DNA of 64,000 nucleotides from Cytophagales bacterium (GTDB lineage: Bacteria; Bacteroidota; Bacteroidia; Cytophagales; Microscillaceae). Numbering within the stretch: position 1 is the stretch's first letter; each line of letters opens with the position of its first letter. A program made the position numbers and the translations under genes. Below, one piece after another: positions 27,098-64,000 of the stretch. Below the pieces are notes generated by a model, which worked only from the letters and a program-made list of their open reading frames with translations, was not told the DNA's origin and did not search any database. The stretch is taken from contig JANPJR010000030.1 of the NCBI GenBank assembly GCA_031425615.1, positions 210,492 to 274,491 of the forward strand, in the 5' to 3' direction.

Positions 27098-27137
27098 AAA
27101 AATTGGTAACGTTTGTTTTTTGCAAATATACAAAAAA

Positions 27138-27345
27138 GTTTAAAGTTCAAAGGATTAAGGTTCAAAAAGTTCAAAGGTTTAAAGTTCAAAGGGATTAAGG
27201 TTCAAAAAGTTCAAAGGTTTAAAGTTCAAAGGGATTAAGGTTCAAAAAGTTCAAAGGTTTAAAGTTCAAAGGGATTAAGATTCAAAAAGTTCAAAGGTTT
27301 AAAGTTCAAAGGTTTAAAGTTCAAAGGGTTCAAGGTTCAAATCAA
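27138..27345. repeat. 40-bp tandem repeat array (about 4.4 copies) in hppD/GT2 divergent intergenic region
   Basis: Unit 'gtttaaagttcaaagggattaaggttcaaaaagttcaaag' at 27138, 27177, 27217, 27257, then a degenerate tail. Confidence 0.9.
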
Positions 27346-27559
27346 AGGGTTGAAGCAACATTATGACATTTCGGTTGTAAATATCTAAAATGTGTTTTAA
27401 AACTTGTAGAAATAACATTTTTTTTTTTACTTTATTTAAAACCAAAATTCCTAATCCATAATTCACAACAAAACTGATAACCTAAAAACTTATAACTGAC
27501 AACTTGGATTAATCCATAATTCTTTCCTTATATTTGCATTATTTTTTAAACAAAAATCT

Positions 27560-45069: not shown

Positions 45070-47520
45070 ATGAAAAAAATCAAAAGAAATTCTGTTACCT
45101 TGTTTTCCTTTTATACAGGAATCTCGTGTTTAGCCACTACATTGCTGGGTATCAATTATGCAAGCGCACAGGTCATAAAAACAGAAACGCATAACAATGG
45201 CAAAACATATCTTGTGTACAAAATGCAATCAGGTGAATATGCCTCAGAAATTGCAAAGGATTTTAAAATCACACTCAAAGACCTTGCAGAAGCAAACCCA
45301 CAAAAGGATTTGAACAAATTAATTTTTGGAGAATCTTTGCTCATTCCACAAGAACCAAAACCACAAAATCAACCAAAAGACAATAACGAACAAGGTATTA
45401 CACGTGGTGAACAAGCAGAAGCTGAAACAGAAGCATTGTCAAACATAAAATATACTGCAAAAGAAAAGGAAAATATCTATGCAATTGCTAAAAAACATGG
45501 CACTACTGCGGTGAATTTGAGGGCTTGGAATCAACTCACATCTGACAAAATTACGCCTGGTCAAGAGCTTATTGTACGTATGGGTTCTAAAAAAAATAGC
45601 AAAAGAAATATAGAAAATAAAGGAATTGCTACCATACAAGCAAATGATGCCAAACGTAAACAAGTCAATACAATTGTTTCTAATAAAAGTCAGGGCAAAA
45701 CAAGGAGCGAGGGAGAAGAAACAGAGGAAAATGTAATCATTACCCAAAAAATAGATACTACTTACCAAGATGTAGTAAAGGAAATTTCACATACTATCAC
45801 AGCAGGTGAAACACTTGCCTCTATTGCAGGAGCATTTGAAACTACCCAAAGTGAAATACTAAAAGCCTCCAATTTGCCTGAAAATTATAAAATAAAAACA
45901 GGCGATGTCATCACTGTGCCTAAACATTCCAAAGAAATGATTATCAGTGAAAAAGACAATAACAACCTAACAGAAATCAAACCAACAGAACACAAAATAA
46001 AAAAAGGTGAAAATCTTGGCACAATTGCAGAAAATTATCATGTAAGTATCAAGGAATTACGTCAATGGAATAATATCCCAGAAAATAATGATAACATCAA
46101 ATTTGACCAAATACTCAAAATTTATCTCCCAAACCCTGAAATATACAGCGTAAAAAAAGGTGAAACTTGGGAAAAGATCGCCAAAAAATATGGTGTGAGT
46201 GAAAAACAAATTTTGGCTTGGAATAATATTTTGGAAGACGAAAATCCTACTGAAAAACAGGAAATTACAATTTATGAACCTGCATTTTTAGGTAAAAAAA
46301 TTGATGCAAAAAAATACAATACTACAACAGACGAAAAATCAAGTAACCCAAAACCAAACGCCAAAATCACTTATCACCACATTGAAGAAGGTGATAATTT
46401 TACCAAAATTCGCAACAAACACAACATCAGTAGCACAGAAATAAAGTTTTGGAATAATAGGAATTTCAATGATGACAATCTTGCAGTTGGGGATAGTCTA
46501 AAATTGTATTTGCCTATTAAACAAAATCACATTGTCAAAAAAGGGGAAACCGCACCACAAATCGCTATAAAATATGGCGTAAATACAAGCCAAATTCGTA
46601 TTTGGAATAACCTCAAACCAAAAAACGATAAGTTTGAATTTGACATAAAAGAAGGGCAAATATTGTTGATTTATGAGCCAACAGGCCCTGCTCCTACCAA
46701 AGAATATTTGGATAAAAAGAAAAAGCCAAACCAAGAATACGCAAACGATAACAAGCAACAAGCAAATAAAAATGCTAAAATAACAGAAAAAACAAACGAA
46801 ACCCAAAATAACACCAACAAGCAAGAAACTACACTCAAAACACATACCATTGGCTCAAAAGAAACTTTGTACCAAATATCAAAAATATACAATGTGTCAG
46901 TTGATGACCTCAAAAAATGGAACAATCTTAGCGACAATACTGTGCGTGAGGGTAACGTCCTAAATGTTTTTGTTGCCAATACCCAAAAAGTTGCGGTAAC
47001 CAAACAAAATCCAACAAGTGATAACAACAATACAAACCAAAAACAATTAAAAGACCCAACCCAAAACCCATTTTACAAACCATCTTCCTCTAACAAAATA
47101 GGTGATGGAAACCTCAAAGTAGAAACCCCAAATCCTGATGCTGACCCATTGGAACAACTCAGTGAAAGCAAAATATCAAGCGTAATAGGCGAAAAAAACA
47201 ACGACAACGAAATAAATAAAGAAACTGAAAACAATAACAACAATGCAGAAGTTTTGACTGTGCAAGGGCTTATGCAACAAAGCACTGATATTCGCAGTGA
47301 TGAACGTTATTCAGTATTGGTAAGGGCAGATAAAAAACATTTTACAAGTGTAGATATCACAGACACAAAAACAGGCATAACCATTACTGCCTCTATTGTG
47401 GGTGAAATAGAACACAAACTAAGCCCAAGTATTACATTGGAAGCAACCCCACAAATCATGCGTGCATTTGGATACGAAGTAGGTGATGTGCCAAGCGTAA
47501 AATTGGAATTTAGGAAATAA
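45070..47520 (+). CDS. secreted multi-LysM peptidoglycan-binding protein
   Basis: 816 aa with signal peptide and about 8 LysM modules ('HTITAGETLASIAG','HKIKKGENLGTIAENYHVSIKELRQWNNI','YSVKKGETWEKIAKKYGVSEKQILAWNNI', etc.) joined by N/K/Q-rich linkers. Confidence 0.85.
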   Translation: MKKIKRNSVTLFSFYTGISCLATTLLGINYASAQVIKTETHNNGKTYLVYKMQSGEYASEIAKDFKITLKDLAEANPQKDLNKLIFGESLLIPQEPKPQNQPKDNNEQGITRGEQAEAETEALSNIKYTAKEKENIYAIAKKHGTTAVNLRAWNQLTSDKITPGQELIVRMGSKKNSKRNIENKGIATIQANDAKRKQVNTIVSNKSQGKTRSEGEETEENVIITQKIDTTYQDVVKEISHTITAGETLASIAGAFETTQSEILKASNLPENYKIKTGDVITVPKHSKEMIISEKDNNNLTEIKPTEHKIKKGENLGTIAENYHVSIKELRQWNNIPENNDNIKFDQILKIYLPNPEIYSVKKGETWEKIAKKYGVSEKQILAWNNILEDENPTEKQEITIYEPAFLGKKIDAKKYNTTTDEKSSNPKPNAKITYHHIEEGDNFTKIRNKHNISSTEIKFWNNRNFNDDNLAVGDSLKLYLPIKQNHIVKKGETAPQIAIKYGVNTSQIRIWNNLKPKNDKFEFDIKEGQILLIYEPTGPAPTKEYLDKKKKPNQEYANDNKQQANKNAKITEKTNETQNNTNKQETTLKTHTIGSKETLYQISKIYNVSVDDLKKWNNLSDNTVREGNVLNVFVANTQKVAVTKQNPTSDNNNTNQKQLKDPTQNPFYKPSSSNKIGDGNLKVETPNPDADPLEQLSESKISSVIGEKNNDNEINKETENNNNNAEVLTVQGLMQQSTDIRSDERYSVLVRADKKHFTSVDITDTKTGITITASIVGEIEHKLSPSITLEATPQIMRAFGYEVGDVPSVKLEFRK

Positions 47521-50068: not shown

Positions 50069-51220
50069 ATGTTATCATCACTCAATTATATAGTTTGGAC
50101 AATCACGCCCGAAATGATAAGCGGTTGGAGTTTCCCACGTTGGTACGGATTATTATTTGCGTCAGGGTTTATTTTTGGGCAAATCATCATGGCACGTATA
50201 TTTTCGCAAGAAAAAAAACCTGCACAAGATTTGGATACATTGCTTATATACATGGTTGTAAGCACTGTGCTTGGGGCAAGGCTTGGGCATTGTTTGTTTT
50301 ATCAACCCGAATATTATTTGGCAAATCCTATTGAAATCCTCAAAATTTGGGAAGGCGGTTTGGCAAGTCATGGAGCAGCAATAGGCATTTTGTTGGCACT
50401 TTATTTATACAGTAGAAACCGTGAAGGGCAAAGTTTCCTTTGGGTATTAGATAGGATTGTGATTGTAGTGGCACTTGCAGGGGCAATGATTAGGTTTGGA
50501 AATTTGGCGAATTCTGAAATTATTGGCAAACCAACCAATGAAAGTTATGCGTTTATTTTTCAAAATGCTTTGCGTGAAGAACTTATACGCAATAATAACG
50601 ACATCAAAGGCATACAAATCACACCACAAACCAAACAAGCACTTGTAGAAAATCCAAATAATAAATCATATAAATTTGTACTTGTAAAACTTACCATTTT
50701 ATTTGATAGAAATAGCAGAAACGAAGAAAATTTGGCTTTTGTAAAAGGAAGTCTGCCCATACTTATACAAAAAGATGCAGAAATTAAAAAACATTTTGCC
50801 ATCAAAGAACAATTTGTAAATAATACCGAAAACACACCCAAAACAGGCGAACAAGGCAAATATAGCACCATAGAAACCGAAATATTAGCCATTCCACGAC
50901 ACCCAGCCCAACTATACGAAGCATTATCGTGTTTACTCCTGTTTGGATTTTTATTTTTTCTGCACCAATCTATGCGTGAAAAAACACCAGAAGGCATTTT
51001 GGCAAGTATTTTTCTGATTGTGTTGTTTGTGTTGAGATTTTTGTATGAATTTTTGAAAGAAAATCAAGTTGCTTTTGAAGATAATCTCTCCCTTAATATG
51101 GGTCAATGGCTTAGTATTCCTGCTATTTTGATGGGTATTGCAATTGGTGTGCTTGCGTTGATGAGAAAAAATAGCCCCCAAGCCCCCAAAGGAGGAGCAA
51201 GTTCCCAAGAAGGAATTTAG
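50069..51220 (+). CDS. lgt: prolipoprotein diacylglyceryl transferase (with ~110-aa insertion)
   Basis: 383 aa with Lgt signature 'WEGGLASHGAAIG' and 'HPAQLYEALS'. A long hydrophilic insert lies between them. Confidence 0.78.
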   Translation: MLSSLNYIVWTITPEMISGWSFPRWYGLLFASGFIFGQIIMARIFSQEKKPAQDLDTLLIYMVVSTVLGARLGHCLFYQPEYYLANPIEILKIWEGGLASHGAAIGILLALYLYSRNREGQSFLWVLDRIVIVVALAGAMIRFGNLANSEIIGKPTNESYAFIFQNALREELIRNNNDIKGIQITPQTKQALVENPNNKSYKFVLVKLTILFDRNSRNEENLAFVKGSLPILIQKDAEIKKHFAIKEQFVNNTENTPKTGEQGKYSTIETEILAIPRHPAQLYEALSCLLLFGFLFFLHQSMREKTPEGILASIFLIVLFVLRFLYEFLKENQVAFEDNLSLNMGQWLSIPAILMGIAIGVLALMRKNSPQAPKGGASSQEGI

Positions 51221-51272
51221 CGTTTTTTGAATTTTAAACTTTTGAACCTTAAACCCTTTGAACTTTAAACCT
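51221..51272. repeat. GTTCAAAGG-family repeat (reverse orientation) between lgt and rlmD
   Basis: 'ttttgaattttaaacttttgaaccttaaaccctttgaactttaaacc'. Confidence 0.7.
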
Positions 51273-51277
51273 TTTTC

Positions 51278-52765
51278 ATGTCCAAAAAAAAACGCATAAT
51301 TTTAGAAAATATAACCGTATTGAGCCTTGTCTCAGAAGGAAAAGCCATCGCAAAACATGACGAAATGGTTATTTTTTTGGAAGGCTCACAAGTTGCACCC
51401 CAAGATATTGTTACAATTGAAATCCACAAAAAGAAAAAAACCTACGCAGAAGCACGCGTATTGGCTGTTACTACGCCTTCGCCTCTGCGTATTACGCCTG
51501 TGTGTGAGCATTTTGGCGTGTGTGGCGGTTGCAAATGGCAACATTTACCTTATTCTTTGCAATTAGAAGCAAAATACAAACAAGTAAAAGACAATTTGGA
51601 ACGCCTTGCAAAAGTTCCTTTGCCTGAAATTCCTGCTATTTTACCTTCTGAAAATACTTTTTTTTATAGGAATAAACTTGAATTTACTTTTTCTAATAAA
51701 AAATGGCTTGAAAAAGCTGATTTAGATAAAAAATTAGCAGAAAGAGCAGAAAATACCCCAGAAAAAGCACTTGAAAACCCTGAAAATACCACTGAAAACC
51801 CTACAAATGATATTGATATGTCGGATTGGGCGTTAGGTTTCCACGTTTCTGGTCGTTTTGATAAGGTTTTGGATTTGGAAAAATGTCATTTGCAAATGAA
51901 TCCTTCCAACGAAATTCGCAATGCTTTGAAAGAAAAAGCCCTGCAAGAAGGTTGGGAATTTTATGATTTGCGTGGAAAAAAAGGCTTTTTGCGTAATATT
52001 ATCATGCGTATTGCTTCTGAAACCGAAATTATGGTTGCGGTGGTTTTTGGTGAAAATAATCCAAATAAAATAACGGTTGTTATGCAGTTTTTGCACCAAA
52101 AATTCCCTCAAATATCGTCTTTGCAGTATTTTATCAATGAAAAACTCAATGACAGCGTATCTGACCTTACACCTTTTCACTATGCAGGAAAGCCTTATTT
52201 AGAGGAGAAAATGGAAGATTTGACGTTTAGGGTTGGGGCGAAGTCATTTTATCAAACCAATTCCGCACAAGCATATACACTTTATAGCGTTGCCAGAGAT
52301 TTCGCAGGGCTCACAGGCGAGGAATTTGTGTATGATTTGTACACAGGCACAGGCACAATCGCCAATTTTGTGGCAAAAAAAGCAAAAAAAGTAATTGGTA
52401 TTGAATATGTAGAAGAAGCTATACAAGATGCAAAAATAAATTCAGAAATTAACCAAATTCACAATACATTATTTTTTGCAGGTGATATGAAAAACGTTTT
52501 AACCAAAGATTTTTTGGAAAAACATGGCAAACCTGATGTTATTATTACTGACCCGCCACGTGCTGGCATGCACGAAGACGTGATAAAAGTGATATTGGAA
52601 GCCCAACCCACCAAAATCGTATATGTGAGTTGTAATCCTGCTACACAAGCGCGCGATATTGCCCTCCTCTACCCTGATTATACCGTTGCCAAAGTGCAAC
52701 CTGTAGATATGTTTCCGCAAACACACCACGTAGAAAATGTGATTTTGATGGTGAAAGCAAGTTGA
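51278..52765 (+). CDS. rlmD: 23S rRNA (uracil-C5)-methyltransferase RlmD/RumA family
   Basis: 495 aa with TRAM domain, Cys cluster 'CEHFGVCGGC', SAM MTase motifs 'DLYTGTGT','DPPRAG' and catalytic 'VSCNP'. Has an unusual ~50-aa acidic insert. Confidence 0.85.
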   Translation: MSKKKRIILENITVLSLVSEGKAIAKHDEMVIFLEGSQVAPQDIVTIEIHKKKKTYAEARVLAVTTPSPLRITPVCEHFGVCGGCKWQHLPYSLQLEAKYKQVKDNLERLAKVPLPEIPAILPSENTFFYRNKLEFTFSNKKWLEKADLDKKLAERAENTPEKALENPENTTENPTNDIDMSDWALGFHVSGRFDKVLDLEKCHLQMNPSNEIRNALKEKALQEGWEFYDLRGKKGFLRNIIMRIASETEIMVAVVFGENNPNKITVVMQFLHQKFPQISSLQYFINEKLNDSVSDLTPFHYAGKPYLEEKMEDLTFRVGAKSFYQTNSAQAYTLYSVARDFAGLTGEEFVYDLYTGTGTIANFVAKKAKKVIGIEYVEEAIQDAKINSEINQIHNTLFFAGDMKNVLTKDFLEKHGKPDVIITDPPRAGMHEDVIKVILEAQPTKIVYVSCNPATQARDIALLYPDYTVAKVQPVDMFPQTHHVENVILMVKAS

Positions 52766-52814
52766 AATATTGGTAGTAAGTGATTTTACTTGATAATAAT
52801 TTTGGGGCAACGCT

Positions 52815-52860
52815 ATTTTTTCCATAGCAAAGGTTTGCAAACCCTTTGCTATGAAAAAAT
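52815..52860. other. stable hairpin between rlmD and the minus-strand island (terminator-like, atypical T-run placement)
   Basis: 'catagcaaaggtttg/caaaccctttgctatg' ~14-bp stem. The T-run precedes rather than follows it on both strands. Confidence 0.4.
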
Positions 52861-52910
52861 ACCATAATGGTAAAATCATGTAACGACTTTTTTTAAGCGA
52901 AAAGTTTGTT

Positions 52911-54110
52911 TTATTGAATAGGAATATCAAAAATTTTTGTTAAGTCAAAATTAATATCGCTTTTTTTTGTAATGTTAAAGATTTGTTGAGGTGTATTATT
53001 TGGATAACCTAAATCACTTAAATTAAGACGTAAAAAATTACAAACTTTGTTAACATGAATTTTCAAAGATTCAAGAATTGCATTGTTGTTTGTATCATAA
53101 CTATCCGAAAAAATAGATTGAATTACCAAATTTGTGGATTTGTTTACTTTTTCTTCTTCATCTTCGTTTAGATAGGTAAAACTATGTCCTGAATGCAACC
53201 AAAAATAATTTGTAAAGATATTTCTGTCATGGATTTTCAATTTTTCTCGTATTTCCGTATACCTATTTGTGGGCTCTACGTTAATCAAATACAACTTTAT
53301 AGAAAATTTGAAATTTTCATTTTTAATTTCTTCAACAAAAAAATTGTAAATTTCAGAGGGTAAATTTGGATTTCTCGTATATTTTTCTTCATACCCAACA
53401 AAAACTACAAGTTTAAATCCCTTATCTAATTTTTCATTATGTAAAATATTTTTCAACATTGGGATAGTATTTTTTTTTATTACATATTCATAATCCTTTT
53501 TGCCTTCAAAATTTCCACCAAAAAAATAATTATCAATTATAACCATTTCGTTACAAAAATGCTTATAATCTCTTAAACTCTCCCAATCTTCAAAAGCATT
53601 ATGTTTTGGCATAATTGGGTCTATATTGAATAACATACTTTTAAACCAAAAACCAGTATGTTGAAAATCTAATAACATATTATCAACATTGATAAATAAA
53701 ATACCATGTTTTTTTGTTAAATTTTGGCATTCTTCATTTGATTTTTCCAACAAAAAAAAAGAAAATGATGTTACTTGTTTGGGTAGTGGTAAAGTTTCAT
53801 CAAAATCTCCAATCCGTTTGCCAATATCCTGAGTTATTTTTTTGGATATTTGATTCAATTCATAATTGCTTTTTTCATTTTCTTCATCAAATTTTTTTTT
53901 GTCAGATAAAATGTAAATTCTCTTTGTTCCAAATGACTGAAAAAAAGTCGCAACTTGCATTTTATGTTTTGTGTCAGCAAAATTATTTGATTGTGTTTCA
54001 CTCAATAAACTTTCAAGAATTATGTCATTTAAAGTTTCCCTGCCAAGAAGTTTTTTTAACTTTTTCAAACTTTCTATGTCAGAAAAAATAGTTATTCTGT
54101 TTTGCATCAT
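52911..54110 (-). CDS. hypothetical protein, partner of upstream AAA ATPase (candidate effector)
   Basis: 399 aa starting 9 bp after the ATPase stop on the same strand. No recognisable family. Has Asn/Lys-rich composition atypical of the housekeeping genes. Confidence 0.55.
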   Translation of the reverse strand: MMQNRITIFSDIESLKKLKKLLGRETLNDIILESLLSETQSNNFADTKHKMQVATFFQSFGTKRIYILSDKKKFDEENEKSNYELNQISKKITQDIGKRIGDFDETLPLPKQVTSFSFFLLEKSNEECQNLTKKHGILFINVDNMLLDFQHTGFWFKSMLFNIDPIMPKHNAFEDWESLRDYKHFCNEMVIIDNYFFGGNFEGKKDYEYVIKKNTIPMLKNILHNEKLDKGFKLVVFVGYEEKYTRNPNLPSEIYNFFVEEIKNENFKFSIKLYLINVEPTNRYTEIREKLKIHDRNIFTNYFWLHSGHSFTYLNEDEEEKVNKSTNLVIQSIFSDSYDTNNNAILESLKIHVNKVCNFLRLNLSDLGYPNNTPQQIFNITKKSDINFDLTKIFDIPIQ

Positions 54111-54119
54111 GTAGTATTT

Positions 54120-56033
54120 TTATAAGTTAGAAATATCAAGTGCTATACTATCCGCTTCATCAAAAAAGCCTGCTCCAAAACGATTATCTAAATATCCATC
54201 TTCTTCTATGCGTATGCGTTCTACTTGTTTGCGACCTTTTGGCACTTCGTCAGGATTATACAGATAATAAATATTGACATCTTCGGGCAAAATCTCCTCC
54301 TTAGCAACCCAATACTGCAACTTACGGATAAGGTACTCGCTATGCGTTTCTACCACAAACTGCACATTGAAAACTTTGCACGCATCTATTAGCATATCTG
54401 CCAATTTAGATTGTAGTTTTGGGTGTAGGTTGGTTTCAGGTTCTTCTATGCAGATGGTAAACCTGTTGCCTCCATCTATTGGGACTTTTACATAATTGAG
54501 ATGATTTTCTTCAAATGTACGTGTTTTTTCGTGTATATTGTATTTTGTTTTTAGTTCTTCGCCTGCATAATATATTAGGTCAGGCATTGTTGCAACTTTT
54601 AATATTAAAGGCAATACTTGTGTAATTCCATAACCCAAATCCACCAAATCTATTTTTTTGCCATTTTTTACAAGAAACACCTCACTTGCTACACCTTTAA
54701 TCTCGTTAATCTCAAAACCATCTGCAATACCAAATTCTTTTAACCAAGTATTTACGAAATCAGTATCTATTTTTTTCTTGTTTAGTAATACATCATGTAA
54801 AAATTCATTAAAAGATGTGCCTTGTGATTGATAGGTGTAAATACGCTGAGAATTGGCTCGCACTCCTTCTATAAATTGAATACCATTTTGCATATATGAT
54901 AATTCACCAAAATTTATTATTTTTGAAAAAAAATCAAAAAATGTTTTACAAGTGTTCGCAAAATCTTTATTGATAATTTGATTTAATTTCAGTTTTCCAC
55001 ATTTTTCTATAATGGATTGAAATTTAGCATAATCTCCTTGAAATAAATAACGTGCAGGGAAATATTCGCGCTCTTCTGGAAATGATAAATTTTCGTCAGA
55101 TTCCATTTCTATTCGCTTTAAAAATTCTTCTTCTGTTTCATGTATAAGATTAACAAAAACGGGGAATTTAATTGATTTATTTTTAGTAGCATATTTAGGA
55201 AAATAAGGTTCGCCAAAAAGAAAGGAAAAAGCCAGATTACTCTCCAAATTATATTGAAGAATACTTTGACGATTTTCCAGATATGGTAATGTTGTTTGAA
55301 ATGGACTATTTATTTGTTTTAAAATATTTCCCTTTAAAATTTCATAAAATTCTGATTTATGAGGATTTTCTCCTATAATTTTGTCTAATTTATCAATATC
55401 CAAAATTTCAGTATTGAAAAATTTGTCCTCAAATAATATTTTTTGTAATGATATTTGAGAATGACATTTTATTCGAGTAGCATTTTCTTGTATCTTTGAA
55501 ATACCTTTTCCTTTTTCGCTCCATGACAAAAGCACTTCATTTTTATCGTTTTTAATATTTATATTTACAATTCTATCTTTCAACCATGAAAAAGAAACTT
55601 TATACGTTTTTATCTCGCTCTCTTTACTATCTCCCAGCAAATTAGAATACAAATCGTTTTTATCCAAAAATTTAAAATCCAATGTACTACATTGCTCATA
55701 ATCATTTTCTTCAATATTATAATTTCCTCCTTGCTCCCAAGTCCATAAAACAGATATTCCAAATTCAAAACTTATTTCTTTTTTATCTTCGTTTGCTTTG
55801 TTATTAACTACATTTTCAAAATCTCCCAGATTATGATTTCCCAAAGAAAAATCAAGCCCTCCAAAAAAATTACCTTTTTTCGCATTTTCGCTTAATAAAT
55901 TCAACGCTTTAAACACACTACTTTTCCCTGAGCTATTCGCCCCTGTCAAAATGGTAATAGGTGCGAATTCAAAGGTGGTTTTTTGTTCAAAAACTCTAAA
56001 ATTTTCTAAACTAAATTGTGTAAGACGAGGCAT
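54120..56033 (-). CDS. OLD/ABC-type AAA ATPase (AAA_15/AAA_21-like) with short C-terminal tail
   Basis: 637 aa. N-terminal 'NFRVFEQKTTFEFAPITILTGANSSGKSSVFKAL' (Walker A). ~490-aa insertion, then Walker B 'TICIEEPETNLHP' and H-loop 'VVETHSEY'. ~60-aa tail resembling DUF3696-type tails. Confidence 0.8.
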   Translation of the reverse strand: MPRLTQFSLENFRVFEQKTTFEFAPITILTGANSSGKSSVFKALNLLSENAKKGNFFGGLDFSLGNHNLGDFENVVNNKANEDKKEISFEFGISVLWTWEQGGNYNIEENDYEQCSTLDFKFLDKNDLYSNLLGDSKESEIKTYKVSFSWLKDRIVNINIKNDKNEVLLSWSEKGKGISKIQENATRIKCHSQISLQKILFEDKFFNTEILDIDKLDKIIGENPHKSEFYEILKGNILKQINSPFQTTLPYLENRQSILQYNLESNLAFSFLFGEPYFPKYATKNKSIKFPVFVNLIHETEEEFLKRIEMESDENLSFPEEREYFPARYLFQGDYAKFQSIIEKCGKLKLNQIINKDFANTCKTFFDFFSKIINFGELSYMQNGIQFIEGVRANSQRIYTYQSQGTSFNEFLHDVLLNKKKIDTDFVNTWLKEFGIADGFEINEIKGVASEVFLVKNGKKIDLVDLGYGITQVLPLILKVATMPDLIYYAGEELKTKYNIHEKTRTFEENHLNYVKVPIDGGNRFTICIEEPETNLHPKLQSKLADMLIDACKVFNVQFVVETHSEYLIRKLQYWVAKEEILPEDVNIYYLYNPDEVPKGRKQVERIRIEEDGYLDNRFGAGFFDEADSIALDISNL

Positions 56034-56199
56034 ATAGGGTAATTAGGAATAGGGGAGTAAAAAAGCCACCCAGCCCACAAAGGGGAGTTTTTGGGTGGAA
56101 ATGGAAAATTATTTTATAAGGTTTATTTTTTCTCAAATATCCATAATTATTTACAGATATTCAAGTTTTTTTTGTATTTGCTCTTTGGGGCTTGGGCTT

Positions 56200-57057
56200 T
56201 TAAATCATATCATTTGCTTGTCTTTGTGGGTGAATATGTGCATTATTTTGCGTGATATAAGGCACAAGGTTTGGGTACAGCGTGTGTAATTCGGTATATT
56301 CAGGGGTATTTTCGCGGTATTCGCAGGGTTGCGATTGTACAGTATTTTTGAGGCGAATAAGCACACGCAAGGTAGCAGAGGGTAAATTTTGGGAGGTAAT
56401 AGTAGTTGCCATACCAAACAATCTTTCTACTTTCTCCCCAAAAACATCCAAATAATTACCAATATGTAGCAATATTTGGTAATGAAATTCTTTTGAGCGG
56501 TTTAGACTGTACATATTAATAGCGAGCAAACTATTGCCAAATGCTTTTGCTTCGCCATAATGTGTGTGTCCGCCTTGTCCTTCTATTTTTACATTGCCAT
56601 CAGCGTGTAATATGAATATATTTTTAAGAATACTATTTTGGGTGCTTGCCAAAAAAAACATTTCATAATGTCCAGCGATACTTTTGAATATGCCCTCGTG
56701 ATTGTGCATGATTGGGTACATTTCGCCATTTTCGTTAGGTATTCGCACATATTTTTTTGTATCATAATCATATTCATAATGATTTTTTCTTAGTTCTGTA
56801 TTGATGTGTTCCAAAAAACCGCTTACCGTTTCTTCGCTTGGTGGGTTATCATCTTTTTTCATTTTGGAAATTGTAGAAGCGTTATACTTATTGTTTGTAA
56901 GTTCTTTATTCTGTTTTTCTAATGCTTTCCAAATTTCAAGGGCTTTTCGCACTTGTGCGAGGAGGGCGTTGTGTGTTGTGGTCATGTTGAAGTTTGTTTT
57001 TAAAGATTTTTTTGCAAAATAATGTTTTTCTTCGTTTTCTCGTACAAGGCTTACCAA
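56200..57057 (-). CDS. hypothetical protein (weak metallophosphoesterase-like motifs)
   Basis: 285 aa with 'IMHNHEGIF' and 'GGHTHYGE' in the order expected for phosphoesterase motifs III/VI, but no GDxHG/GDxxDR. Assignment weak and start uncertain. Confidence 0.4.
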   Translation of the reverse strand: MVSLVRENEEKHYFAKKSLKTNFNMTTTHNALLAQVRKALEIWKALEKQNKELTNNKYNASTISKMKKDDNPPSEETVSGFLEHINTELRKNHYEYDYDTKKYVRIPNENGEMYPIMHNHEGIFKSIAGHYEMFFLASTQNSILKNIFILHADGNVKIEGQGGHTHYGEAKAFGNSLLAINMYSLNRSKEFHYQILLHIGNYLDVFGEKVERLFGMATTITSQNLPSATLRVLIRLKNTVQSQPCEYRENTPEYTELHTLYPNLVPYITQNNAHIHPQRQANDMI

Positions 57058-57085
57058 ATTTTTAAATTTGGCAAATCAAGTCTAA

Positions 57086-57433
57086 TTAATATCCCATTCC
57101 GTCCATCAAACTGTCAAAATCACCATCAAAGTCGTCATAATCGCCATATTGTCCATCAGTTAAGGCATTGAAAGTATCACGGTCATAATCATGATTACGA
57201 TAATTATCATCATCTTCATCAAGGTAATTACTCCATTTTTCGGTTTGTTGTGTGATACCTTCCGCAGAAATTACATTTTTTAGATGTTCAAATACTTCAT
57301 CTTCCAAGCAAAAATGGTCAAGATTGCACAAACACCAATCTATATATGAGGTGTCTATTTGTGAAACTTCTTGCAAAGATTTTCCTTCATATTTCCCAAA
57401 AGTAAATTCTGTATTTTCGTTATAAATTTTCAT
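57086..57433 (-). CDS. DUF3820-like small acidic protein (hypothetical)
   Basis: 115 aa with 'FTFGKYEGKSLQEVSQIDTSYIDWCLCN' resembling the FGKYKG...DP.Y..W family, followed by a D/Y/G-rich acidic tail. Confidence 0.45.
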   Translation of the reverse strand: MKIYNENTEFTFGKYEGKSLQEVSQIDTSYIDWCLCNLDHFCLEDEVFEHLKNVISAEGITQQTEKWSNYLDEDDDNYRNHDYDRDTFNALTDGQYGDYDDFDGDFDSLMDGMGY

Positions 57434-57748
57434 ATTTTTATGTGTTTAGTGTGTTTTAAAGATTTTTTGGTTAGTTTTCCTTTAAATTATATTGCAAAGT
57501 TCAACTTTATGTTTTGGAAATAAAAAGACAAGCAGACTTATAAATTTCTTTCCAATTTCCAAGAAATTTCCTAATTTTTTTGACACAAAAAAGCCTCCTA
57601 ACCCACAAAGGAATAAACTGCCTTTGACTGTAAAAACGAAAATACTTTTTGGTACTTAATCCATTTTATACTGATAAATGTTAATTTAGCATCAAAATAA
57701 CCGTTATTTTAGGATTTTAAAGGCATTTTAAAATTATTTTTAAAAAAA

Positions 57749-57783
57749 CTTAGGAAACTATAAACTTTTTTATAGTTTCCTAA
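57749..57783. promoter_or_regulatory. candidate TetR operator (perfect 16-bp inverted repeat) upstream of MFP-RND operon
   Basis: 'cttaggaaactataaa ctt tttatagtttcctaag' has the same arms as the tetR-proximal copy and lies ~110 bp upstream of the MFP start. Confidence 0.5.
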
Positions 57784-57853
57784 GTTTTCTTGTTATATAT
57801 TTGCAACTCAAAAAATTAGGAAAAAACCGTTTTATTTTTATTTTATTATTTTT

Positions 57854-57888
57854 CATTCCTAATTTCTAATTCTTAATCCCTAATCCCA
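57854..57888. repeat. heptamer-periodic repeat (TTCCTAA type) abutting MFP start
   Basis: 'cattcctaatttctaattcttaatccctaatccca'. Confidence 0.8.
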
Positions 57889-57894
57889 TAAAAT

Positions 57895-58962
57895 ATGCTT
57901 AAAGTCTGGAAAATCATTAGAATACCATTATTTTTAATTGCTTTTGTGGCTGTAATTGCTTTTACGCTCACAAACAATAAAGAAAAAGCCAAAGAAACCG
58001 CAAAAATTGCGGAAAAAACGGTAGATACTTATCCTGTTTCTGTTGCAAGTGCTGGTTTTGAAAATTTTGAGGGAAATTTTAACCTTACAGGTAATCTTGA
58101 GCCTTTTCGTGAGTTGAATTTTGCCTCAGAAGTTGCAGGCAGGGTAACTGCTGTTTATTTTGAAAAAGGTTCTTTTGTAGGCGAAGGAAGCGTATTGGTA
58201 AGGCTTGATGACGAATCTATCCAAAGAGAATTAAAAATCGCCAATATCACATTAGAAAAAAGACAAAAAGATTTTCAACGTGTAGAAAACCTCGCAAAAT
58301 CAAGCGTTGGAACAATGGCACAATATGATGACGCAAAATATGCCCTACAAACCGCAGAACAACAAGTAGAAACACTTAAAGAACGCCTTGCTAAAACTGT
58401 CATAAAAGCCCCTATCACTGGCATAATCTCACGCAAAGCAATAGAAAAAGGCTCTTACCTCGCCCCAAATGTGCCTATCGCAGATATTACTGATGTATCT
58501 CGTATGAAAATGATTATAAAGGTATCTGAAAGTGAGCTTATGAAAATACAACAAGGACAATCTGTAAAAATAAAAATGGACGCATATCCCGATTTGGATT
58601 TCACTGGTGTTGTTACCAATCTCGCTGTAAAAGCTGACAACTCAAAACGTTATGAAGTAGAACTACAAATATCAGGTAATGGCAATGCTTCGCTCAGAGG
58701 TGGGCTTTTTGGCATCGTGTATTTCCAATTTGCAAAAAGTGGTAGTGCTCTAATGATTCCACGCAGGGCTATCGTAGGCAGTATCCAAGATGCACAAGTA
58801 TTTGTGGTGGAAAATGGTATCGCCTTTGTACGTAAAGTAAAAGTAGGTACTATCAAAAATGATAAAATTGAAGTAATTGAAGGTTTAAAAGAAAATGAAA
58901 AAGTGGTAACCACAGGACAAATAAACTTGCAGGATAAATCTAAGATTACAGAAATAAAATAA
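57895..58962 (+). CDS. RND efflux periplasmic adaptor (MFP/HlyD family)
   Basis: 355 aa with N-terminal TM, biotinyl-lipoyl-like and beta-barrel domains ('VLVRLDDESIQREL'). Confidence 0.85.
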   Translation: MLKVWKIIRIPLFLIAFVAVIAFTLTNNKEKAKETAKIAEKTVDTYPVSVASAGFENFEGNFNLTGNLEPFRELNFASEVAGRVTAVYFEKGSFVGEGSVLVRLDDESIQRELKIANITLEKRQKDFQRVENLAKSSVGTMAQYDDAKYALQTAEQQVETLKERLAKTVIKAPITGIISRKAIEKGSYLAPNVPIADITDVSRMKMIIKVSESELMKIQQGQSVKIKMDAYPDLDFTGVVTNLAVKADNSKRYEVELQISGNGNASLRGGLFGIVYFQFAKSGSALMIPRRAIVGSIQDAQVFVVENGIAFVRKVKVGTIKNDKIEVIEGLKENEKVVTTGQINLQDKSKITEIK

Positions 58963-59152
58963 TGATTAATGGTTAATTATTAATGGTTAATTATTAATGA
59001 TTAATGGTTAATTATTAATGATTAAAACAAAAAATAAAATTAATTAACCATTAATGGTCAATCATTCACAATTAATTAATACATTTTCAATCAATTAATC
59101 TCAATTAATCTCAATCAATACACAACCAACTAATCATTAATCATTAAAAAAT
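58963..59152. repeat. TAAT-palindrome-rich left flank of four-helix-bundle gene
   Basis: Tandem 7-bp-periodic 'tgattaa tggttaa ttattaa' units with palindromes 'ccattaatgg', 'attaat', 'ttaattaa'. Confidence 0.8.
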
Positions 59153-59509
59153 ATGGCAAATATTATTAATGAAAAAAGTTTTGCATTTGCAGTAAGATAT
59201 GTAAAAATGGCACAACATCTACAAGACACCAAGAAAGAATTTATCATGAGCAAACAATTACTGCGTTGTGGTACATCAGTAGGAGCAAATGTAAGAGAAG
59301 CCCAATATGGAGAAAGTAAAAAAGATTTTATTCATAAATTAGCCATTGCCCAAAAAGAATGTAATGAAAGTTTATATTGGGTAGAATTATTATATGCTAC
59401 TTCTTACTTGACCGAAAAAGAATATCAGTCTATACAAATGGATTTAGAAGAACTTTTAAAAATCCTTACAAGCATTATTGTTACTACAAAAAAAACAATT
59501 AATGATTAA
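59153..59509 (+). CDS. four-helix-bundle protein (TIGR02436 / '23S rRNA intervening-sequence protein' family)
   Basis: 118 aa with 'SFAFAVRYVKMAQ...LLRCGTSVGANVREAQYGESKKDFIHKLAIAQKECNESLYWVELL', a characteristic family signature. Inserted between the MFP and RND genes. Confidence 0.8.
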   Translation: MANIINEKSFAFAVRYVKMAQHLQDTKKEFIMSKQLLRCGTSVGANVREAQYGESKKDFIHKLAIAQKECNESLYWVELLYATSYLTEKEYQSIQMDLEELLKILTSIIVTTKKTIND

Positions 59510-59599
59510 TGGTTAATGATTAAATAAAAAAAGCACAAAATAGAATTAATAAAACACTCACAATTAATAATTAATAATTAATAATTAATCATTAAAAAT
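59510..59599. repeat. TAAT-palindrome-rich right flank of four-helix-bundle gene
   Basis: 'ttaatggttaatgattaa ... aattaataattaataattaataattaatcattaaaaat' immediately before the RND start. Confidence 0.8.
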
Positions 59600-62500
59600 A
59601 TGACACTTACCGAATTAGCAGTAAAACGACCAAGTTTGATAGTCGTTATATTCTCTGTACTTACATTTTTGGGCGTATTTAGTTACATGACCTTAGGTTA
59701 TGAACTTATGCCCAAGTTCTCATTACCCATTGTTACCATTACTACTGCATATCCTGGTGCCTCACCAAAGGAAGTAGAAACATCTGTAAGCAAAAAGATA
59801 GAAGATGCAGTTGCAGTCATGGAAGGCATTTCCACAATCCGCTCCATATCACAAGAAAGTTTCTCAACTGTAATCATAGAGTTCAATGCAGGAACAAAAA
59901 TTGATGATGCTGTGCTTGATGCCCAAAGAAAATTAAACGCAGTTATCTCTACCCTGCCAACAGATGCCAAAACACCAAGCGTAAGCAAAATATCTTTTTC
60001 AGAAGCCCCTATTATTCGTATGGGTGTAGCAGGTAAAGTATCACCTACCGAACTATTTGATGTGGTAAAACAACGTATCGTACCCGCTCTTACCAAAATA
60101 AATGGCGTAGGTGCAGTAGATTTGGTTGGTGGTGAAGAAAGAGAAATCAGAATTAATGTAAATAAAAAGAAATTGGAGGCTTACAATATCTCTATTCTCC
60201 AAGTTTCGCAAGCTATCCAAAAATCTAATCTGGATTTTCCAACAGGTAAAATCAAAACCCAAGATAATCAAAATCTAATCCGTCTTGCAGGAAAATTTAA
60301 AAGCATAAAAGAATTAGAAACCGTTATCATAGCAACTGACCGCGCAGGTTCACCTATTTATCTCTCGCAAGTAGCAGAAGTACAAGATGCCCAAAAAGAA
60401 ATAGAGAAAATAACACACGTAGATGGCAACAATTCCATAGGCTTGATGATAAGAAAACAATCTGATGCTAATGCAGTAGAAGTAAAAAAACAGGTAATGA
60501 AAGAGTTAGCCAGCCTTGAAAAAATGTATGCCAAGCAACAAATAAAGTTTTCCATAGCACAAGACACTACAGAATTTACCATGAAAGCTGCAGAAGCGGT
60601 AATGGAAGATTTATTGTTGGCAGTGCTATTGGTAGCAAGCGTAATGTTATTGTTTTTGCATAGCTGGCGAAATGCGTTGATAGTAATGGTAGCCATTCCT
60701 GCCTCTATTGTTTCCACATTTATAGCCATGTTTGTATTAGGCTTTACCTTAAACTTAATGACCCTCCTTGCACTTTCATTAGTGGTAGGTATATTGGTAG
60801 ATGATAGCATCGTAGTATTGGAAAATATACACCGACATCTGGAAATGGGCAAAGACCCTCAAACAGCTGCCTTAGATGGTAGGCAAGAGATAGGATTTTC
60901 TGCCATGTCTATTACACTTGTGGACGTAGTGGTATTCTTACCAATTGCACTTGTAAGCGGACTAATCTCTAATATCCTTAGACAATTTTCGCTTGTAGTT
61001 GTAGTATCTACATTGATGAGTTTATTTGTGTCATTTACTGTAACACCTTTGTTAGCCTCACGTTTTTCAAAAGCAGAACACCTAAATCCTAAAACATTCT
61101 TTGGTGCATTTATTATATGGTTTGAAAAACAATTAGATTACCTCACTGCCTCTTATATAAGCCTGCTTAAAGTATCATTGCGTTACAAATTATTAACTTT
61201 GATGGTAGCTTTCGGTTTGTTTTTTAGCTCTTTTTTATTAGGAACGTATGGTTTTATAGGGTCAGAGTTTGTAACTACAGGAGATAGAGGGGAATTTATT
61301 ATAAATGTTGAGCTTCCAAAAGACGCAACCGTAGAACAAACAAATAGAATTAGCCAAAAAGCAGAAAAATTGCTGTTTGAAAATAAATATGTTACAGGTA
61401 TATTTACCACAGTAGGGGCAACTTCTGAACTTATTGGCGGACAAGCAACTGTATTTAAGGCTGAATTAAACGTAAAGCTGGTTGAACGTGCAGAACGCCC
61501 CTATCCTTCAGGCATAATGGCTACCCTTATTCGCAATGAAATTGCTGAAAAAATAGCAGGTGCCAAAATCACAACTTCAGAGGTAAGTTTTACAGGACAA
61601 GCCAACAACGCACCTTTACAATTTGTGCTTGCAGGAAATAATAATGACACTTTATTCAAATATGCCCAAATCCTAAGAGATAAAATCAGCAAGATTCCAG
61701 GCACAGTCAATATAAAACTTTCTGCAGAGAATGGTAACCCAGAAATATCTGTCCAAATTGACAAAAAACGTATGTCTGATTTAGGATTAAGCATGGACGC
61801 AGTAGGTGCTACTATGCAAAATGCTTTTAGTGGCAACGATAAATCAGAATTTGAAGATGGTGATTATAATTATGACATCAATATTAAATTAGATGACTTT
61901 GACCGAAAAAACATTGATGATGTTGCTTCACTTATTTTTGTTAATAATCAAGGACAAAACATCAAGTTAAGTCAATTTTCCCAAATAAATCAAACCACAG
62001 GAGCCTCCAAACTTGAACGCAGGGGGCGTATGTCTTCCGTAGTGATAGAAGGACAAGTATTAGGGCGTACCGTAGGAGATGTAGGGGGCGATATTGATAA
62101 AATAATTGCAAGTACAAAACTCCCTACCGACATTACTGTAAGCAAAGATGGCGACCTCAAACGTCAAGGCGAGGCATTTGGAAGTTTAGGCTTTGCGTTA
62201 TTAGCCTCTATCCTATTCATGTATTTGATTATGGTGGCATTATACGACAGTTACATATATCCATTTGTCGTATTGTTCTCCATACCTGTTGCTATCATGG
62301 GTGCATTGTTGGCACTTGCCCTTACCATGAGTTCATTGAGCATATTCTCTATGTTGGGTATGATAATGCTCGTGGGATTGGTGGCAAAAAATGCAATTCT
62401 CTTAGTGGATTTTGCAAATCAGATGAAACAAGAAAGAGGAATGAATACATACGATGCCTTAATAGAGGCTGGACATACCCGACTCCGCCCTATTTTGATG

Positions 62501-62758
62501 ACAACCATAGCTATGGTACTTGGTATGCTCCCTATTGCACTTGCAAAGGGGGCTGGTGCAGAGTGGAAGAACGGTCTTGCTTGGGCATTGATAGGTGGAT
62601 TAAGCAGTTCTATGCTCTTAACATTGGTAGTTGTGCCTGTAATGTATAGTTTGGCAGATAGCATGATTGCATTTGTAAATAAAATAATGGGTGTAACCAC
62701 AAAAGAAATAAATACAACCACACCAGAAAAAAAAGAGGAAGCTATCGCTTTACATTAG
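59600..62758 (+). CDS. RND multidrug efflux permease (AcrB/HAE1 family)
   Basis: 1052 aa with 12 TM helices and two large periplasmic loops, starting 'MTLTELAVKRPSLIVVIF'. Confidence 0.9.
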   Translation: MTLTELAVKRPSLIVVIFSVLTFLGVFSYMTLGYELMPKFSLPIVTITTAYPGASPKEVETSVSKKIEDAVAVMEGISTIRSISQESFSTVIIEFNAGTKIDDAVLDAQRKLNAVISTLPTDAKTPSVSKISFSEAPIIRMGVAGKVSPTELFDVVKQRIVPALTKINGVGAVDLVGGEEREIRINVNKKKLEAYNISILQVSQAIQKSNLDFPTGKIKTQDNQNLIRLAGKFKSIKELETVIIATDRAGSPIYLSQVAEVQDAQKEIEKITHVDGNNSIGLMIRKQSDANAVEVKKQVMKELASLEKMYAKQQIKFSIAQDTTEFTMKAAEAVMEDLLLAVLLVASVMLLFLHSWRNALIVMVAIPASIVSTFIAMFVLGFTLNLMTLLALSLVVGILVDDSIVVLENIHRHLEMGKDPQTAALDGRQEIGFSAMSITLVDVVVFLPIALVSGLISNILRQFSLVVVVSTLMSLFVSFTVTPLLASRFSKAEHLNPKTFFGAFIIWFEKQLDYLTASYISLLKVSLRYKLLTLMVAFGLFFSSFLLGTYGFIGSEFVTTGDRGEFIINVELPKDATVEQTNRISQKAEKLLFENKYVTGIFTTVGATSELIGGQATVFKAELNVKLVERAERPYPSGIMATLIRNEIAEKIAGAKITTSEVSFTGQANNAPLQFVLAGNNNDTLFKYAQILRDKISKIPGTVNIKLSAENGNPEISVQIDKKRMSDLGLSMDAVGATMQNAFSGNDKSEFEDGDYNYDINIKLDDFDRKNIDDVASLIFVNNQGQNIKLSQFSQINQTTGASKLERRGRMSSVVIEGQVLGRTVGDVGGDIDKIIASTKLPTDITVSKDGDLKRQGEAFGSLGFALLASILFMYLIMVALYDSYIYPFVVLFSIPVAIMGALLALALTMSSLSIFSMLGMIMLVGLVAKNAILLVDFANQMKQERGMNTYDALIEAGHTRLRPILMTTIAMVLGMLPIALAKGAGAEWKNGLAWALIGGLSSSMLLTLVVVPVMYSLADSMIAFVNKIMGVTTKEINTTTPEKKEEAIALH

Positions 62759-62806
62759 CAGAGCCATTGGATAATAATTAATTTCTTCTATTTATAATGA
62801 TACCAT

Positions 62807-62850
62807 AAAAAAAAGGTTTTAATGCTATAGCATTAAAACCTTTTTGATTT
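62807..62850. terminator. bidirectional terminator after RND pump gene
   Basis: Stem 'aaaaggttttaatgc-tata-gcattaaaacctttt' followed by a T-run. Confidence 0.8.
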
Positions 62851-62866
62851 TTAAATTAAATCTTTA

Positions 62867-63244
62867 CTACACATCTTTTTTTACCTTAATTTTCGGGCTG
62901 TCATCTACCACAAATCCCCAATCACCCATCTTTTTCGGGTTTTTTGGGAAGCTGGCTTTTAATAATGACTTACTTACACGTGTAATCTCTTGAATTTCAG
63001 GAAAAAAATTGTCCCTTTCTCTATAACATTCCTCCATTTTACGTTTTAGTTCTTCTGCTTCAAGATGTTTTTCTAAACACAATTTTATTTTTTCACCCAT
63101 TTCGTCCCAATTCATGCCCTCTATATTTTTTAATAGTGAGGTTTGTCCATCTAATTTGTGCTTTTCATACACTTTTTTAGCAAGTGCAAGATGTTCTTCA
63201 ATGTTTGAAGGAATAGAAACACGACCTTTTGTTGTTTTAGCCAT
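62867..63244 (-). CDS. hypothetical protein
   Basis: 125-aa Lys/Glu-rich ORF with a terminator downstream. No recognisable family. Confidence 0.4.
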   Translation of the reverse strand: MAKTTKGRVSIPSNIEEHLALAKKVYEKHKLDGQTSLLKNIEGMNWDEMGEKIKLCLEKHLEAEELKRKMEECYRERDNFFPEIQEITRVSKSLLKASFPKNPKKMGDWGFVVDDSPKIKVKKDV

Positions 63245-63551
63245 AATAATTAAATGTTTTGTGTAAATAAATTTTTATTTTTTTAGTATTAACAAATGTT
63301 AAATTACATATAACAAATATAAAATTACAAATTATAAATGTTATTATATGTTTTTTATAAAAAATATGCAACATTTTATATAAAATTTTACGCCTAATAC
63401 GTATAATTATACAAATAATGTTTGTAATTGCACAAATATAAAAACGTAGGCGTGCATAAATTTTATTTTACATGCAAATTATATTGTTTTTTTGTAAAAT
63501 ACAAAATATTATACAATAATTTTTAAAATAAATTTTTAAAATTATTTTTGT

Positions 63552-64000
63552 TTAATGTGCGTAAAGTTTTTTTATTTTGTCATAATCAATTTTTGAATAA
63601 TGTCTTGCATCTCTTGGTATTTTTTTTACAAATATAATATTATCAAAAACAAAGTTTAATGTATCAAAAAGCATTGTAATTTGTTGTATAATGGTTGTTT
63701 TTAATACATTTTTAAATGTTGTTGTATCTTTTTCTACAAAAATTATAATTTTATTATTTATTTCTAATACCGTAGCAATATTTATTCCTTGTATTTGCAA
63801 AAAATAATGTTCTACCATAAAAGGAAATATCAACATATTATCTTTTTGTATGATATTGACACATTTTCCTGTAAGAAAAAGATTATTTTCATTATCTATA
63901 TAACCACTATCCCCTGTCCTATGCCAACAAATTGTATCATTTTGATTTGTTACACGTATTTTATTTTGTTTCATGGCTACATCATCATTTATATATTGTG
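63552..64000 (-). CDS. AMP-dependent synthetase/ligase family protein, C-terminal part (gene continues beyond window end)
   Basis: 'WHRTGDSGYIDNENNLFLTGKCVNIIQ' is AMP-binding motif-like. The frame is open from 63974 to the window edge, so the listed Met is internal. Confidence 0.55.
   Translation of the reverse strand, partial: QYINDDVAMKQNKIRVTNQNDTICWHRTGDSGYIDNENNLFLTGKCVNIIQKDNMLIFPFMVEHYFLQIQGINIATVLEINNKIIIFVEKDTTTFKNVLKTTIIQQITMLFDTLNFVFDNIIFVKKIPRDARHYSKIDYDKIKKLYAH

Follow-up and report, generated by a model that had tools for sequence, protein, structure and literature searches.

Is the gap between the two genes of an RND efflux pump in a Cytophagales bacterium an old part of the operon or an insertion, and, if an insertion, of what kind? 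In the stretch analysed here (contig JANPJR010000030.1, 64,000 nucleotides, 33% G+C, termed the window throughout), open reading frame (ORF) calls and profile searches place three ORFs in series on the + strand. These are MFP, the RND-type periplasmic adaptor gene (57895-58962, 355 aa; TIGR01730 E 1e-65, PF16576), a gene of 118 aa (59153-59509), and the RND efflux permease gene (59600-62758, 1052 aa; PF00873 E 1e-257). The middle gene belongs to the four-helix-bundle '23S rRNA intervening-sequence protein' family (PF05635, TIGR02436), and FHB denotes the genes and proteins of this family below. An earlier note, made from the letters alone, had placed the two pump genes 637 bp apart (58963-59599), with a FHB gene and its family signature in between; both statements hold. 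The protein exceeds the curated cut-offs of both family models, with 93.3 bits on PF05635 against 33.8 (covering model positions 4-105 of 106) and 107.5 bits on TIGR02436 against 24, and its residues 3-114 match PDB 2RLD, a solved four-helix-bundle structure whose entry comprises 5 chains (phmmer, E 2e-34). Spacers of 190 and 90 bp lie on either side of the gene. We regard it as probable that the gap is an intervening-sequence-type cassette, i.e. a FHB ORF within complementary heptamer arrays, inserted in sense orientation between the MFP and RND cistrons.

The content of the MFP-RND gap was compared in 20 loci encoding RND relatives. The closest relative, L002 (RND 90%, MFP 85% identical), has a gap of 255 nt and no FHB gene. 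Blastn homology connects window 57743-59016 with L002 3512-4806 and window 59563-62686 with L002 4967-8092; it breaks within the outer repeat arrays, and 59017-59562 of the window (546 bp) are swapped for 160 bp of AT-rich sequence. The 17 more distant orthologous operons possess gaps of 24-35 nt, free of arrays and of any FHB match at E 0.1. L022, a 2-kb contig, carries MFP and FHB with TTAATGR arrays in copy numbers unlike those of the window. The FHB gene is sporadic, being present in the window, L001 and L022 and absent from L002 and the 17 outgroup operons. The cassette at the MFP-RND junction is an insertion: because L002 is FHB-free and the outgroup gaps measure only 24-35 nt, the short gap is ancestral and the cassette an accessory gain. 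The empty-site comparison suggested in the earlier note thus returns L002 and the 17 outgroup operons as loci without the gene. The pattern that would have spoken for an ancestral member, namely the gene in all relatives without repeat flanks, is absent, since L002 is gene-free and L022 possesses the gene together with arrays. The proposal of a small self-contained insertion cassette is borne out by the missing gene in L002, the short outgroup gaps and the array flanks found throughout the family (see below).

The spacer of L002 has inverted arrays of its own, built from another unit, (AATTATG)n and (CATAATT)n, and folds with a z-score of -6.2. These arrays (L002 4749-5005) surround 160 nt of AT-rich, internally palindromic sequence, and the same unit, AATTATG, also flanks FHB genes in L033, L065 and L108. 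The L002 spacer could be a decayed or non-autonomous cassette; searches for a FHB remnant in it by tblastn (E 0.1) and blastn-short find array-to-array matches only.

Both spacers of the window locus consist largely of heptamer arrays. The outer-left array (58960-59025, +) comprises 9.4 copies of TAATGAT/TAATGGT/TAATTAT and begins with the MFP stop codon. The inner-left array (59040-59150, +) is degenerate and complementary to this type, with CCATTAA, TCAATCA, TCAATTAATC (×2.9) and TAATCAT (×2.4); its last 70 nt are G-free and end 2 nt 5' of the FHB ATG. The inner-right array (59497-59524, +; TTAATGA TTAATGG TTAATGA) overlaps the last codons and the stop of FHB. The outer-right array (59562-59599, +) is again complementary, with AATTAAT ×5.4 and a final unit TCATTAA, and ends 4 nt before the RND ATG. 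TRF reports period 7 at 58960-59025 (9.4 copies), 59131-59147 (2.4), 59498-59523 (3.7) and 59562-59599 (5.4), and period 10 at 59091-59119 (2.9). When periods 4 to 12 are compared across the window, 28-nt windows with at least 85% self-identity occur at period 7 alone. The 7-bp periodicity of the flanks noted earlier is therefore real, but the repeats are not the simple palindromes they were taken for: they form strand-asymmetric pairs, in which G-containing TTAATGR arrays run from each stop codon and their complement, YCATTAA/TTAATAA, stands just before the next ATG.

As inverted repeats, the pairs are 82% complementary over 49 nt and 89% over 36 nt, and fold z-scores against shuffled sequences are -6.2 (58955-59155), -3.4 (59490-59605) and -3.3 (whole gap). 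In the minimum free energy fold predicted for the whole gap, 58966-58998 of the outer-left array is joined to 59563-59595 of the outer-right one, and the inner arrays enclose the FHB ORF (59133-59149 with 59497-59513). In local folds, each spacer by itself is predicted to form a long A-U hairpin, in which 59040-59150 pairs with 58960-59025, and the inner-right array alternatively with 59568-59595, so that the layout is doubled, with one hairpin per side of the FHB gene. In local and whole-gap folds alike, every stop codon is found at the 5' base of a stem, with the next start at the 3' base.

The family sample comprises 80 metagenome loci with FHB relatives 44-63% identical to the query, plus the contexts of exact database proteins. 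These 80 loci are the best matches to the query, and the rule derived from them covers this subfamily plus 11 plasmid examples of more distant kinship. For the metagenome loci, genes were called crudely as the longest ORFs; array detection is unit-based, an array being at least 3 tandem heptamer units. For each FHB gene the 80 nt upstream were compared with the 80 nt downstream, and z-scores derive from mononucleotide shuffles, which were used in the same way for cases and controls. The median z-score of the flank-to-flank duplex energy is -3.79 for 67 FHB genes and -0.16 for 185 neighbours in the same loci (Mann-Whitney p 1e-18), with values below -3 in 61% and 6%, respectively. Arrays are present at 84 of 111 FHB-adjacent boundaries (76%), at 17 of 180 other boundaries (9%; Fisher p 7e-32) and in 8 of 527 windows of 100 nt drawn at random from related loci. 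This within-locus control rules out a mere genome-wide habit of the organism as a full explanation of the arrays. In 21 of 28 two-array loci, reverse complementing the upstream consensus heptamer gives the downstream one (permutation mean 4.3, maximum 12). The unit itself varies by locus (AATTGAC, AGTGATT, AATTGAG, AATTATG, TTAATGG, AATTCGG and others, with 32-57% G+C). FHB proteins that share an array unit are 60% identical, as against 50% (Spearman -0.30, permutation p <=5e-4); because FHB similarity tracks the shared unit in this way, gene and arms tend to share their inheritance. An arm measures about 31 nt; the upstream one starts at a median of -7 nt from the end of the upstream stop codon, and the downstream arm ends at a median of 3 nt 5' of the downstream ATG. 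The design of an ORF between inverted heptamer arrays is family-wide.

In 43 of 48 loci (90%) both neighbours of the FHB gene are read in its direction, as against 139 of 192 co-directional control pairs of genes. FHB genes split operon partners such as araD and araA, aminotransferase and prephenate dehydrogenase, two ABC permease genes, hsdS and hsdR, two UDP-glucose dehydrogenase paralogues, amidohydrolase and CN-hydrolase, or ABC ATPase and permease. Two further loci, L066 (2733-7629) and L125 (203-3333; Chondrinema litorale plasmid NZ_CP111046), have the order MFP-FHB-RND. Their pumps are non-orthologous and just 21-27% identical to the pump of the window, and for this reason the MFP-RND junction seems to be a recurrent home of the cassette. 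The pattern spans two phyla. Among RefSeq replicons, Nostoc flagelliforme possesses (TAATTCG)4 / (CGAATTA)4 (z -13.9), Nostoc N6 (CAATTCG)4 / (GCGAATT)4 (z -10.7), N. punctiforme and Euhalothece reach z-scores of -8.4 and -7.6, Dolichospermum likewise has FHB with complementary arrays, and Bernardetia carries (TTAGTGA)16 upstream. Flank z-scores fall below -3 in 7 of the 11 plasmid loci. Nostocales dominate the plasmid matches, and homologues also occur in Bernardetia and Candidatus Halobeggiatoa; the whole '23S rRNA IVS protein' family (IVS, intervening sequence) comprises 10,295 clusters at 50% identity that match at E <=1e-3.

Some loci depart from the common layout. In plasmids of Anabaena cylindrica (L119, 2501-2848) and Nostoc sp. 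TCL26-01 (L123, 1489-1845), FHB separates cas2 from cas1 and is antisense to them; short repeats of the AAAAGTA type flank it, and it does not fit the co-directional read-through pattern. A stretch of about 3 kb contains a pair of full-length FHB genes in both L105 and L108. L050 has a 55-aa FHB-like ORF (2540-2707) beside a full-length FHB gene (2762-3127), and L121 (Monoglobus) an unannotated, truncated FHB ORF between hsdS and hsdR.

The cassette has a history separate from that of its flanking genes. Between the window and L022 the FHB genes are 93.8% identical in nucleotides (synonymous divergence dS 0.26, dN/dS 0.095), the MFP genes 80.5% (dS 1.09), so that the dS of FHB is 4-fold lower; the synonymous contrast is significant (Fisher p 2e-7), and the shift in identity falls no more than about 15 nt from the MFP stop. 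In MFP, the distances among window, L022 and L002 are roughly equal (dS 0.87-1.09), with the cassette in two of the three. A second case, independent of repeats, is provided by L025 and L026, in which FHB lies between ABC ATPase and permease genes: the flanking genes are 90.4% and 90.6% identical, whereas the FHB gene and both spacers show 0 mismatches in 507 nt, and the identical tract reaches 40-90 nt into the flanking genes. Such a pattern is consistent with homologous recombination that imported the tract from a related genome. The FHB protein is under purifying selection; it is about 60% identical across phyla with many invariant residues, and this conservation, together with the dN/dS of 0.095, argues that the protein does something. 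Additional FHB copies, for which the earlier note had proposed to search, are lacking among the six-frame ORFs of the window (phmmer). A search of 5.8 billion proteins returns the L022 copy at 96% and next matches at no more than 68%. A recently amplified repeat is ruled out, since no near-identical paralogue appears in this protein search.

Known elements resemble the window element to different degrees, rRNA IVSs most directly. One member of the query subfamily resides in an rRNA gene: in L068 a FHB gene (3992-4342, 53% identical to the query) lies in sense orientation inside a complete 23S rRNA gene (2695-6033), between complementary flanks (z -6.6) with a stem of about 35 bp and a degenerate 7-nt rhythm (CAATTAA CAAAGAA CAGATAA CAATTAC). 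This element is a bona fide IVS. In Coxiella burnetii the complementary borders of the IVS form a stem and RNase III excises it (PMC4990558). Two or three tandem GACAGAT heptamers, variable among strains, stand just 5' of the S23p ORF there, and RNase III cuts at the first of them (PMC4990558). The window element shares with rRNA IVSs (Coxiella burnetii, Leptospira, Brucella, Xanthomonas-type S23p) the PF05635 family, the complementary stem borders, the sporadic presence among relatives and, as in Coxiella, tandem heptamers at the 5' border. It differs in that its host transcript is an mRNA, where it fills the intercistronic spacer from the stop codon to the next start. Further differences are stems of 4-9 tandem heptamers, a doubled layout in which hairpins lie both 5' and 3' of the ORF, and a protein under selection, in contrast to the decaying one of Coxiella. 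As it has the testable features of an IVS apart from residence in an rRNA gene, it is best described as the intercistronic counterpart of the rRNA IVS.

Heptanucleotide repeats at gene boundaries (STRR, LSSR, TAACTGA) are the second point of comparison. TAACTGA repeats beside start codons are described from Beggiatoaceae, cyanobacteria and five Bacteroidota including Flexibacter litoralis, and their cause was not found (PMC4679880). Shared with the window arrays are 7-nt units directly before starts or reversed after stops, stop codons in all frames, variable copy number and taxa including Flexibacter/Bernardetia. MacGregor 2015 (PMC4679880) deals with single TAACTGA arrays as possible sites of a translational regulator, with no FHB link, whereas the arrays here form complementary pairs around a FHB gene and the unit is locus-specific. 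The taxa known for such repeats are also those in which FHB homologues are found. The window locus possesses tandem 7-nt units abutting start and stop codons, with TTAATGR in place of TAACTGA.

How the pump operon would accommodate the cassette can be outlined from sequence features. The cassette would be promoterless, its transcription relying on read-through from the promoter of the operon. The -7 element of Bacteroidota promoters is TAnnTTTG, and a regex scan of 57400-59800 finds it only once on the + strand, 5' of MFP (TATATTTG, 57796-57803). This candidate is the likely promoter of the entire MFP-FHB-RND unit; because it is the only such motif, FHB and RND are probably read from it. At the other end, an A-run, a GC-poor hairpin and a T-run (62807-62846, either strand), read from the sequence, resemble a bidirectional terminator, and the gene after RND is convergent to the operon. 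The A-rich context of the FHB start, CATTAAAAAATATG, is the same as at host genes. In the transcript, the array at each stop would pair with the complementary array just before the next start, and the resulting long A-U-rich stems would bring together the MFP stop, the start and stop of FHB and the RND start. Since each stop lies within a 5' arm and the next start after the 3' arm, a ribosome that terminates at the stop would melt the stem, making the following start accessible. Stems opened in this way may keep MFP, FHB and RND translationally linked across the 637-nt insert, which would not uncouple the pump genes, FHB being expressed as a passenger. RNase III probably acts on these stems, as the analogy with the 23S rRNA IVS that carries the same gene family suggests. 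The cassette may spread as a unit by recombination between related genomes, and its arrays may expand and contract through slippage.

Several points weigh against this account. Co-transcription, pairing in vivo, RNase III cleavage, coupling and a function of the protein are all inferred. The mismatches in the arms give no signal of selection at the RNA level (15 G:U-compatible versus 23 A:C, p 0.26) and so do not separate a role of the arms in RNA from one in DNA. The spacers fold separately as well, and the ORF in a loop is one among several near-equivalent structures. L022 is a contig that ends in an array, so that a chimeric join could inflate its dS contrast with the window. FHB-free gene boundaries of the window also carry heptamer arrays (7633, 18304, 27071, 57857), the last of them a G-poor array (57857-57884, +; TCCTAAT ×4) that ends 10 nt before the MFP start codon; as these boundaries and the L002 spacer bear arrays, the latter need no adjacent FHB gene. 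Work on Coxiella suggests that S23p is not even made there (PMC4990558). Finally, no mechanism by which the cassette reaches a new operon was found.

An intervening-sequence-type cassette nevertheless accounts for the locus better than the alternatives that follow. One of these, which we rate as unlikely, is a mobile element acting at the DNA level: the cassette would be moved or copied by a trans-acting enzyme or by the FHB protein itself, the arrays would be recombination or recognition sites (cruciforms or hairpins, attC- or IS200/IS605-like), and RNA structure would be a by-product. In its favour, the arms are complementary irrespective of transcript logic, their mismatches being mostly transversions without G:U excess, and in two loci the cassette has diverged to a different degree than its flanks. 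The more similar the FHB proteins, the more similar their heptamers tend to be, as expected for arms and gene that travel together, and read-through expression does not explain the antisense FHB genes between cas2 and cas1. However, no integrase, transposase or reverse transcriptase is present within 50069-64000, and the features of transposons, MITEs or integrons are lacking, as no neighbouring ORF of this interval has a transposase or integrase domain. No target-site duplication is recognisable at the array borders, where repeats could hide a short one. The identical tract of L025/L026 spills into the genes, as in homologous recombination and not as in site-specific insertion, and the co-orientation in 43 of 48 loci, combined with the exact placement of arms from stop to start, indicates a constraint from transcript or translation. 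Integron cassettes (ORF plus attC) and REP/BIME hairpins are similar in being promoterless ORFs or structured elements, co-directional and with imperfect inverted repeats; the window lacks an integrase, RAYT, attC or REP consensus and has instead tandem-heptamer inverted repeats on both sides of the ORF.

A related idea, which we put forward tentatively and consider doubtful, assigns the recognition of the arrays to the FHB protein. ORF and arrays would then be an autonomous selfish element, and the wider heptamer arrays its footprints, non-autonomous copies or landing sites. Avd and the S23p of Xanthomonas form positively charged pentamers of toroidal shape and act together with nucleic acids (PMC10053308; PMC4990558). 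A toroidal FHB pentamer would read about 4-5 tandem 7-nt units, matching the modal arm length. The habitat of such an element would be any transcribed non-coding loop, either an rRNA helix or an intercistronic spacer, and the cyanobacterial STRR, the TAACTGA repeats of Beggiatoaceae, the arrays of Bacteroidota and the FHB-less spacer of L002 would all be included.

It is improbable that the association is a coincidence, with heptamer repeats born by slippage at many boundaries beside a small host FHB gene to which they have no functional link. Arrays do occur at FHB-free boundaries of the window and in the L002 spacer, their copy number differs between window and L022, and start-adjacent heptamer repeats are known from Beggiatoaceae, cyanobacteria and Bacteroidota (PMC4679880). 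Chance does not account for the enrichment of 76% versus 9% within the same loci, for arms that share a heptamer in reverse complement (21 of 28 against a null of 4.3), for a pattern that holds from 32% to 57% GC in two phyla, or for a cassette whose divergence is discordant with its flanks.

Still less probable, and to be given very little weight, is an ancestral member of the pump operon, for instance a regulator or chaperone of MFP-RND, lost in L002 and the distant relatives. Purifying selection (dN/dS 0.095) and FHB genes at three MFP-RND junctions would agree with this, but the three pumps are non-orthologous (21-27% identity), 17 outgroup operons have gaps of 24-35 nt, and the dS of FHB is 4-fold below that of MFP. 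The FHB subfamily, moreover, is also found at araD-araA, with ABC transporter, amino-acid biosynthesis and restriction-modification genes and inside 23S rRNA.

That FHB is the accessory variability determinant (Avd) of a diversity-generating retroelement (DGR), a protein with a related four-helix-bundle fold (PMC10053308) to which FHB shows weak similarity (bAvd, PF22296, E 0.005; NF033474, E 0.001), is for all practical purposes ruled out by a score of 19.1 bits on NF033474, far under the cut-off of 80, and by ORFs scanned in 50069-64000 that contain no reverse transcriptase domain, and the gene has no template/variable repeat pair around it.

To our knowledge, the '23S rRNA IVS protein' family has solved structures and no role outside the Avd of DGRs, and the heptanucleotide repeats at gene boundaries of cyanobacteria, Beggiatoaceae and Bacteroidota have been unexplained since about 1990. 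FHB genes and heptamer arrays go together as one unit, an ORF between complementary arrays, and the two old puzzles, the role of the family and the intergenic heptamer repeats, may have one answer. Full-text literature yields no published link of FHB genes with paired heptamer arrays or operon spacers, and a prior description is possible. If the cassette is of the intervening-sequence type, the classical rRNA IVS would be a special case of an element whose main habitat is the intercistronic space of ordinary operons, including those of efflux pumps, ara genes, ABC transporters and restriction-modification systems. The model makes testable statements on the formation of stems, their processing by RNase III, the coupling of genes across the insert and the binding of the protein to the arrays, and cultivable hosts exist. 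For annotation and operon prediction, an operon interrupted by a gap of 0.4-0.7 kb that contains a FHB gene need not be split into two transcription units.

Further features of the gap and its surroundings are few. The minus strand of the MFP-RND gap contains no ORF of at least 50 aa, and an Rfam scan of 55000-64000 gives no match at E <=1. A defence role of the locus was rejected, as PADLOC yields just a chance-level match to Csx26 (E 0.003), and so was a phage role, the PHROGs search of the locus being without matches.

Heptamer repeats occur at other gene boundaries of the window. Repeats of the type AGTTGTCAGTT/TCAGTTG stand directly 3' of the stop codons of seven genes, namely 7844-8914(-), 9299-9916(+), 13369-14460(-), 16628-17716(+), 25970-27061(-), 35135-36496(-) and 45070-47520(+). 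The TCAGTTG type is the reverse orientation of the TAACTGA repeats of MacGregor 2015 (PMC4679880). G-poor arrays (CATAATC, CCTAATT) are located directly 5' of several start codons. In this genome, arrays that follow stops seem as a general rule to contain G, and those that precede starts to be poor in it. Where the genes 25970-27061(-) and 27560-28339(+) diverge, the intergenic DNA contains, beside (AATTAGG)4 at 27071-27098, an array of 40-bp period (27134-27349; 5.5 copies, 92% matches) with heptamer-like units AAGGTTC/AAAGTTC. An 84-bp tandem duplication (20486-20643; 1.9 copies, 90% matches) lies within a 1045-aa ORF (18955-22092, -).

Upstream of the pump operon, on the minus strand, the ORF 54120-56033 encodes an ATPase (AAA_15/AAA_21/DUF3696) whose best PADLOC match is NsnB (E 8e-48). 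It is directly followed by a 398-aa ORF (52911-54110, -) without Pfam or PADLOC match. Judged from their sequences, the two ORFs (52911-56033, -) look like a candidate two-gene anti-phage module.

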